Origin: a virus
Taxonomy: Duplodnaviria; Heunggongvirae; Uroviricota; Caudoviricetes
DNA length: 7,506 bases
Reading direction: 5' to 3' (one strand)
Virus record (IMG/VR): IMGVR_UViG_2541047499_000011
Coordinates: 1 to 7,506 of that record
A program made the translations under genes and the position numbers. Shown piece after piece: positions 3,928 through 4,450 of this stretch. The notes under the pieces were generated by a model. The model searched no databases. It worked only from the letters and a program-made list of their open reading frames with translations, and was not told where the DNA came from. Within the stretch, counting starts at the first letter, position 1. Each line of letters starts with the position of its first letter.

Positions 3928-4245
3928 CACCACACTTATCTGCCCTGACTCTCTTTTGCGGGCTTTTTATTACAGGAAAGACACCGGACAGTGAAATGTT
4001 AAATGCCTCACAATTCAGGCAGTTGACTGTTGCCTGACATGCTGAGCGTTTGTTAAAAAAATCCTGCATGATGAATCCCCCTGAGCGGCGGGGCATAATG
4101 ACAGATGTTTGGTTGCGTATTGTATAGGCAAGTTGCGGATTCTGTCTGGTCATTGCAGAATTCACCGGGAGGCACCCGGCATCATGCTGTATACAGAGAT
4201 TAGGCATATATCCAGGCTTCTCATCGCAGGAGCCTTTTTACATGC

Positions 4246-4271
4246 AAAAAAAAGCCCGAGTGGGTTCGGGC
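4246..4271 (-). terminator. Terminator-like hairpin oriented for leftward (minus-strand) transcription
   Basis: On the + strand an A8 tract (4246-4253) precedes the hairpin GCCCGA (4254-4259) / TCGGGC (4266-4271). On the minus strand this reads as stem-loop followed by a T8 tract. No minus-strand gene is evident upstream of it. Confidence 0.35.
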
Positions 4272-4331
4272 AACAGCATGAGATACTTGCATTGTCATTT
4301 TTATCGTGTGGATTTTAACCAGGGTTTATAA

Positions 4332-4362
4332 GGCTGCGCAACTGCGCGGCCTTTTTCGTTTT
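4332..4362 (+). terminator. Rho-independent terminator upstream of the esterase gene
   Basis: 8-bp stem GGCTGCGC (4332-4339) / GCGCGGCC (4344-4351) with one G-U pair and the tetraloop AACT, followed by TTTTTCGTTTT (4352-4362). Confidence 0.55.
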
Positions 4363-4450
4363 GCGGGCTGCGGTTCTCCTCTTTTGATTCTCCTTGTGGC
4401 CGGACCGTGGCCCGCAACTGTTGAGGAAAATCCCGGAAAGGGGAGGAATA

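Follow-up and report, generated by a model that had tools for sequence, protein, structure and literature searches.

A toxin-free tRNA-to-esterase interval of a lambdoid prophage holds two small RNA genes and a 37-39-bp cargo slot

Shiga toxin (Stx)-converting phages carry their toxin genes between a cluster of tRNA genes and an esterase gene. We analyzed the corresponding interval in a 7,506-nucleotide stretch of DNA, hereafter the window (positions 1 to 7,506 of the IMG/VR virus record IMGVR_UViG_2541047499_000011), which is a lambdoid prophage segment extending from the late-regulatory through the lysis region. Here, 523 bp (3928-4450) separate the end of a tRNA-Arg(TCT) gene from the ATG of the esterase gene at 4451. 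With a probability of roughly 0.9, this gap is the standard tRNA-to-esterase module of the lambdoid prophages of enterohaemorrhagic Escherichia coli (EHEC), in its Sp9 version, and represents a standing allele that carries no toxin. It is 100% identical to the 523-bp intergenic region between argO3 and ECs_1781 in prophage Sp9 of O157:H7 strain Sakai (NC_002695.2, 1774312-1774834), including an exact copy of the small RNA (sRNA) EcOnc03 and the same convergent order of two sRNA genes. Window positions 3600-4500 recur at ≥99% identity in 356 records among complete E. coli genomes. The module itself, its 'moron' position, its presence in stx-negative prophages and both of its RNA families are already known from publications and Rfam.

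The original prediction for this DNA regarded the gap as an empty cargo slot, free of any credible open reading frame (ORF) and containing several hairpins. Much of that description holds. The gene order it gave for Stx phages is that of phage 933W (Q, pR', ileZ-argN-argO, a terminator, stx2A/B, esterase, S/R), and the locus is indeed stx-negative: tblastn of StxA1, StxB1, StxA2 and StxB2 against the whole window returned chance matches only (best E 0.11), blastn of the stx1 and stx2 cassettes gave zero matches inside the gap, and no stx remnant is present there. Mechanical ORFs of 116, 69, 54, 52 and 51 amino acids (aa) lack a Pfam match at E≤0.1 and overlap structured RNA genes or a tRNA, and RefSeq annotates no coding sequence (CDS) in the identical stretch. 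The emptiness, however, was not borne out. Because the module is common to toxin-positive and toxin-negative phages, approximately 440 of the 523 bp are not slot, and only 37-39 bp (3969-4007) replace the 1341-bp stx2 cassette.

Two convergent small RNA genes

The plus strand of the gap encodes an Hfq-binding sRNA of the STnc100 family (4008-4245), corresponding to EcOnc28 of Sp9. Rfam family RF02076 (STnc100) matches window 4037-4245 over full model positions 1-206 with 175.2 bits, against a gathering threshold of 47. The gene ends in an intrinsic terminator (stem 4214-4235, T-run 4236-4240; -10.7 kcal/mol, z -3.25) and lies in the late region between the cargo site and the esterase gene, as is characteristic of the family. 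EcOnc28 is a homologue of EcOnc27/sRNA103, which is found downstream of stx2B; STnc100, EcOnc27 and sRNA103 are names for the same RNA in the literature, where its overexpression raises fimZ and espA transcripts. In strain EDL933, 11 STnc100 copies are transcribed, and some of them carry ribosome-profiling footprints. A cross-linking and analysis of cDNA (CRAC) peak for Hfq, EcOnc28 (+), maps to the Sp9 sequence that is identical to the gap (Tree et al., 2014; PMC4104026).

On the opposite strand lies EcOnc03 (4247-4306), an anti-sRNA of the AgvB/AsxR class with species of 56, 54 and 51 nt. The published 51-nt sequence (Tree et al., 2014) matches exactly at 4250-4300 (-; 51/51). In this RNA the 5' region, CGAUAAAAAUGACAAUGCA, is variable and the 3' region is conserved, and there is a terminator at 4271-4254 with a U-tail. 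This is the layout of the class, namely 51-60 nt with a conserved 3' region of ~42 nt that includes the terminator and a variable, unpaired 5' region of 14-18 nt. In the predicted fold (-13.9 kcal/mol, z -2.2) the 5' end stays single-stranded, and across 48 homologues conservation is lowest in the 5' variable block. The RNA converges with its longer neighbor, as members of the class do at the 'moron' site 3' of pR'; the two 3' ends, at 4240 and 4247 on opposite strands, are ~6 nt apart.

Rfam places the minus-strand RNA (4306-4247) in AgvB (RF02702) with 56.6 bits against a gathering threshold of 56, while AsxR (RF02703) scores 46.8 bits against 63 and is thus sub-threshold. We rejected AgvB in the strict sense and consider the RNA to be EcOnc03, because CACAACA, the mimic of the GcvB R1 target that defines AgvB, is absent from the 5' region. 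We also rejected AsxR, given its score and the absence of stx2 at the locus. AgvB (EcOnc01a/b) of prophages Sp10 and Sp17 resembles the window RNA in its conserved 3' ~42 nt, terminator, position and orientation, and it too sits beside an empty slot. It differs in carrying the CACAACA mimic where the window RNA has AAAAAUGACAAUGCA, and therefore a different partner is expected for the latter.

A probable EcOnc03 promoter, read from the sequence, is located at 4312-4341 (-) and comprises a -35 element TTGCGC (4341-4336), an 18-nt spacer and a -10 element TAAAAT (4317-4312). This placement predicts a start at about 4306/4305, in agreement with the published 56-nt species. Both hexamers are conserved upstream of AsxR in 933W.

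These RNAs have been characterized in Sakai. Convergent sRNA pairs were described at the 'moron' site of Sp3, 4, 5, 9, 10, 11, 15 and 17, with the module lacking stx in Sp3, 4, 9, 10, 11 and 17 (Tree et al., 2014, Mol Cell 55:199; PMC4104026). In the same study, EcOnc03 (-) of Sp9 was Hfq-bound, gave 56-, 54- and 51-nt species on northern blots and was destabilized without Hfq; both RNAs of the identical Sp9 sequence are made in uninduced lysogens and bind Hfq. AgvB and AsxR act as Hfq-binding sponges: the variable 5' end of AgvB pairs with GcvB, and that of AsxR with FnrS (PMC4104026). The literature that we searched reports no target for EcOnc03. Pairing of the EcOnc03 seed with its convergent STnc100 partner was considered and rejected, as its -8.9 kcal/mol is weaker than that of shuffled seeds (-11.0 ± 2.3).

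All three hairpins listed in the original prediction exist, and each has a place in this arrangement. The first (4165-4179, CCGGG-AGGCA-CCCGG) is a conserved internal stem-loop of STnc100. The second (4254-4271, with an A-run at 4246-4253) is the minus-strand terminator of EcOnc03. The third (stem 4330-4353, T-run to 4362) is a separate, strong plus-strand intrinsic terminator with a 10-bp stem, of which 7 pairs are GC (-18.8 kcal/mol, z -3.9). It overlaps the EcOnc03 -35 element, which sits inside the hairpin, and lies just upstream of the leader of the nanS-p esterase gene. Thirty-two nucleotides of this terminator are identical in 933W, though the region overall is 76% identical, and it is well conserved across 48 distinct related sequences. 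Two further hairpins went unlisted: the STnc100 terminator described above and a stem-loop at 4077-4094 (+) that forms part of the 5' portion of the same gene. Between 3500 and 4700, three terminator-like sites were observed against 1.3 ± 1.1 expected. The remainder of the gap, 4363-4450 (+), reads as the esterase leader with a ribosome binding site (GGGAGGA, 4441-4447), and the esterase start agrees with the RefSeq annotation of near-identical loci. Two other sub-threshold Rfam matches were dismissed: P26 (24.3 bits against 36) as a chance match, and Plastid-ycf2 as the antisense image of a tRNA.

The cargo slot and its alleles

Aligning the window to 933W, as the original prediction had proposed, confirmed that its flanks are homologous to the flanks of stx. 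Window 3601-3968 is 80% identical to the left flank in 933W (368 nt), including the 933W terminator upstream of stx, and window 4008-4500 is 76% identical to 933W (493 nt) starting 46 bp past the stxB stop codon. Because the 933W flank alignments end there, window 3969-4007 is the counterpart of the 1341-bp stx2 cassette. The slot is filled by 37-39 bp, TTACAGGAAAGACACCGGACAGTGAAATGTTAAATGCC, and is delimited on the left by the terminator downstream of argO and on the right by TCACAATTCAG. A second Stx2a prophage has the same junctions as 933W. When the filler was compared with the 933W stx2 cassette by blastn-short, only chance 6-13-mers were found.

Relative to a Stx-converting locus, the window therefore retains the conserved flanks, with tRNAs and a terminator on one side and STnc100, an anti-sRNA and nanS-p on the other, and lacks stxA/stxB. 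The stx2 locus of 933W/Sp5 reads ileZ-argN-argO, stx2AB, STnc100 (EcOnc27, sRNA103), AsxR and nanS-p; in the region after stx2B, Rfam scores STnc100 at 207.7 bits and AsxR at 88.1 bits. Order, flanks, the convergent pair of STnc100 and anti-sRNA, and the third terminator before the esterase gene are shared with the window. In contrast, 933W possesses the 1341-bp cassette instead of 37-39 bp, an intact argN, a strong terminator downstream of argO, and an anti-sRNA with the FnrS-targeting, AsxR-type 5' region CGATTATTAAAACG.

To survey the slot more widely, we classified its content between argO and the right boundary in 103 IMG/VR contigs that carry a fixed 18-nt right-boundary motif; the allele counts are approximate. 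Roughly half (~51/103) carry stx2. The empty filler allele accounts for ~37 of the 103; in it, argO and the boundary lie 74, 75 or 80 bp apart, and three single-nucleotide variants occur. Other cargoes also occupy the site. Six contigs (L017, L042, L056, L071, L093 and L108; 1578-bp cargo) encode a 311-aa N6-adenine methyltransferase-like protein with an NPPF motif, and five or six (L026, L058, L065, L098 and L107; ~800-bp cargo) carry a 143-aa TerB-like gene. Two more (L052 and L103) have a 104-bp remnant that keeps 40 bp of the right end of the TerB cassette. The filler allele is also found on the 933W-like podovirus phi296. A one-genome-per-species scan for the exact filler junction returned a single Escherichia sp. 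record, which says little about host range.

The slot content is linked to its flanks. In the census, all 21 loci with the AsxR-type 5' region carry stx2, whereas the slot is empty in every locus with the EcOnc03-type (25) or AgvB-type (5) region. When flanks of fixed length were compared (443 nt on the right), empty alleles shared 96-100% identity in the right flank, against ≤84% over ~400 nt to that of any stx2 locus. The diverged right flank, the slot-linked anti-sRNA allele, the recurrence of the filler on several backbones and the lack of any remnant together argue for a standing, toxin-free allele at a polymorphic cargo site, and against the filler being the scar of a recent deletion.

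The Stx1 phage YYZ-2008 (NC_011356) provides a further comparison. Between stx1B and the esterase gene that follows, it likewise carries an STnc100 copy (190.7 bits) and an anti-sRNA. Unlike in the window, stx1AB directly follows Q with no annotated tRNA genes, and homology begins 14 bp further left, at 3994. The right boundary thus differs between toxins, at window 3994 for stx1 and 4008 for stx2, and the right 14 bp of the filler are common to this Stx1 phage. The YYZ-2008 anti-sRNA (L110 21416-21475, minus) is 60/60 identical to EcOnc03 of the window, whereas the surrounding module is ~80% identical. The contrast suggests that this patch was either exchanged by recombination or kept by selection, and it connects EcOnc03 with stx1.

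In two census loci (L062 and L072), the 3' half and terminator of an STnc100-like gene are followed by a filler-like sequence, GGCACCGGGCAGTGAAATGTTAAATCAC, and then by a second STnc100 copy. This tandem arrangement suggests that the filler is the sRNA gene's own upstream region.

The original prediction had offered two origins for the gap, toxin-gene loss or a pre-acquisition state. For loss, stx2AB or stx1AB would once have resided here and been removed by internal deletion, leaving the gap as a footprint. The homology of the flanks to stx flanks is what such an event would leave, and a true deletion derivative is known at the site in the 104-bp allele with the right end of the TerB-type cassette. 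Moreover, the left flank of one stx2 locus in the census shares 96% identity with that of the window, so recombination across the slot does happen. Nevertheless, we consider a deletion scar very unlikely. Stx-derived sequence is absent from 3969-4007 and from the whole window, and the position of the cassette amounts to 37-39 bp, not 520 bp. The same filler, in three single-nucleotide variants and at three spacings, is present on different backbones including phi296. Its right 14 bp belong to the sRNA module and not to a junction, since they are common to the Stx1 phage and to the tandem STnc100 copies. Finally, the AsxR allele is found in 0 of 30 typed empty-slot loci, and the right-flank haplotype is far diverged from that of every stx2 locus sampled. 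The pre-acquisition state came closer than loss, although the filler allele is no more than the form in which O157 prophages most often carry the module.

A related proposal is that the gap is a dedicated, integron-like acquisition site that captures toxin cassettes, with the hairpins serving as recombination signals. At least four cargoes and the empty state do share the left boundary and nearly the same right boundary, and these boundaries coincide with hairpin-forming elements. The hairpins, however, are explained as terminators and components of RNA genes, the right boundary is not the same for stx1 and stx2, the cassettes lack flanking repeats and there is no recombinase gene in the vicinity. 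The haplotypes of the flanks vary together with the cargo, which fits whole-module homologous recombination between mosaic lambdoid phages. We therefore give a dedicated acquisition site little credence. The least probable alternative is that small proteins are encoded in the gap; PHANOTATE annotates three minus-strand hypothetical CDS at the corresponding position of phi296. Mechanical ORFs of 32-116 aa are present and ribosome-profiling footprints are published for some EDL933 STnc100 copies, but these ORFs have no Pfam match and overlap the tRNA or structured RNAs, PGAP/RefSeq calls nothing in identical sequence, and frequent indels in the 933W alignment show that the reading frames are not conserved.

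Several observations weigh against the assignment of the gap to a standing, toxin-free Sp9-type module. Phages with diverged boundaries, which include most Stx1 phages, are under-represented in the motif-seeded census. Folded as a single sequence, the STnc100 region does not outperform shuffled sequences (z -0.83), and support for this gene thus rests on the covariance model. Its 5' end and promoter are placed by candidate hexamers only: a sigma-70 scan gave weak candidates, such as CTGACA-17-AAAAAT at 4034-4062 (unconfirmed), and by eye TTGCCT-18-TAAAAA (4031-4059) and TTAAAT (3999-4004) are further unconfirmed candidates. The published RNA sizes, ~222 nt in stx-negative prophages and 235/247 nt in Sp5, do not discriminate among these candidates. 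The AgvB score of EcOnc03 is barely over its threshold, the sponge action of EcOnc03 is an analogy with AgvB and AsxR, and the RNA expression data derive from Sakai Sp9, not from this genome. Lastly, the window is mosaic, with a Q gene and a CPBP-like moron (~606-2115) unlike those of Sp9, and the late-promoter context may consequently differ.

Terminators and a proposed working of the module

The left boundary of the slot is a degenerate intrinsic terminator located after argO (3942-3968, +), whose homologue in 933W is annotated 'terminator upstream of the stx genes'. Its fold has dropped to -6.0 kcal/mol (z -1.5) in the window, compared with -14.8 kcal/mol (z -4.2) in 933W, via mutations in the stem (GGCTCGC to GACTCTC). 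Transcripts from the tRNA promoter probably read on past this decayed terminator into the sRNA module.

The tRNA cluster itself has also changed. Its probable promoter, TTGCGG-17-TATTAT (3657-3685, +), was placed by alignment to the annotated 'pT' of 933W (L004 3083-3111). It is followed by an ileZ-type tRNA with a CAT anticodon (3695-3770, +; ARAGORN, and 70.9 bits for the Rfam tRNA family), which RefSeq calls tRNA-Ile and which is annotated ileZ3 in Sakai Sp9. The argO-type tRNA-Arg (TCT) at 3851-3927 (+) is supported by ARAGORN, Rfam and the Sakai annotation. The stretch between them (3771-3850, +) is alignable to argN of 933W but lacks 12 nt spanning the anticodon arm, as well as 8 nt of spacer. 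Neither ARAGORN nor Rfam calls a tRNA here, and Sakai Sp9 annotates only ileZ3 and argO3. We therefore regard argN as a pseudogene, and this prophage supplies two tRNAs instead of three.

We propose that in the lysogen each sRNA would be transcribed from its own promoter and stop at its own terminator, with the 3' ends a few bases apart. The STnc100-type RNA would act in trans as an Hfq-dependent regulator. By analogy with AgvB (GcvB) and AsxR (FnrS), the unpaired variable 5' end of EcOnc03 would pair with and neutralize a host sRNA. EcOnc03, which is also the stx1-linked anti-sRNA in YYZ-2008, may define a third sponge specificity. The plus-strand terminators would keep transcription from the tRNA and sRNA promoters out of nanS-p and the lysis genes; such confinement would matter more in this prophage because the terminator downstream of argO has decayed. 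On induction, Q-modified polymerase from pR' would be expected to read through all of these terminators.

It is also possible, if on balance doubtful, that the right part of the filler, AAATGTTAAAT (3994-4004), carries the native -10 region of the STnc100-family sRNA; toxin cassettes would then have been spliced in precisely at this promoter, and gaining stx2 would rewire the 5' end of the sRNA. This sequence is common to Stx1 phages and to the tandem STnc100 copies. If true, a filler promoter would explain the ~222-nt RNA of stx-negative prophages versus the 235/247-nt RNA of Sp5, and it would bear on the junction k-mers that have been reported to predict haemolytic uraemic syndrome.

The locus also holds a lesson for annotation. 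An 'empty' prophage intergenic stretch turns out to contain two documented regulatory RNA genes and insulating terminators, and standard genome annotation reports none of these RNA genes or terminators. Narrowing the toxin position to a 37-39-bp interval is useful for junction polymerase chain reaction or read mapping that distinguishes stx-free, stx1, stx2 and other-cargo alleles.

The surrounding window

Pfam matches identify RusA (259-630), a Q antiterminator (PF06530; 611-991) and an AT-rich gene for an Rce1/CPBP-like membrane protease (1143-1961), whose region has a GC content of 35-38% compared with ~52% in the rest of the window. These are followed by a 65-aa ORF (2248-2445) and an N6/N4 DNA methylase (2596-3654; Pfam). 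The right neighbor of the sRNA module is the nanS-p-type sialate O-acetylesterase gene (4451-6388, +; 645 aa; Pfam DUF1737+SASA+DUF6645), annotated in locus L003 as a SASA family carbohydrate esterase. Pfam matches to DUF1378, DUF826 and a P21-type holin (7101-7316) complete the map.

The whole window is contiguous in none of 5,426 complete E. coli genomes, with a best coverage of 80%. It matches Sakai Sp9 throughout the gap but differs from it upstream: over 606-2115, the PF06530 Q gene and the CPBP/Rce1-like gene replace a DUF1133 protein that Sakai annotates as a phage antiterminator. Past the CPBP gene, 1.1 kb downstream of Q, a 56-nt stretch (within window 2069-2125) contains a plus-strand terminator (stem 2103-2118 followed by T6). 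This stretch shares 77% identity with a segment of YYZ-2008 located 15-69 nt downstream of Q, and it may be a late-leader/tR' region, the site of the short StxS RNA in Stx phages.

On the other side of the module, the published northern probe for the Hfq-bound sRNA EcOnc33 has an exact match at 6442-6476 (+). This match implies that a minus-strand sRNA lies between the esterase gene and DUF1378. No Rfam family matched this site (6386-6490, minus strand), where the minus strand forms a GC-rich hairpin followed by U7 (-31 kcal/mol, z -3.1). Both sRNA positions flanking the esterase gene have reported counterparts in enteropathogenic E. coli (EPEC) E2348/69, likened here by published description, not by sequence (Zhu, Shabalina and Storz, 2026, bioRxiv 10.64898/2026.05.13.724894). 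PasD is reported as an STnc100 relative directly upstream of a prophage sialic acid esterase gene, and PasA and PasC are reported to lie between the genes for the esterase and the holin, a position that in the window holds the EcOnc33 probe site.

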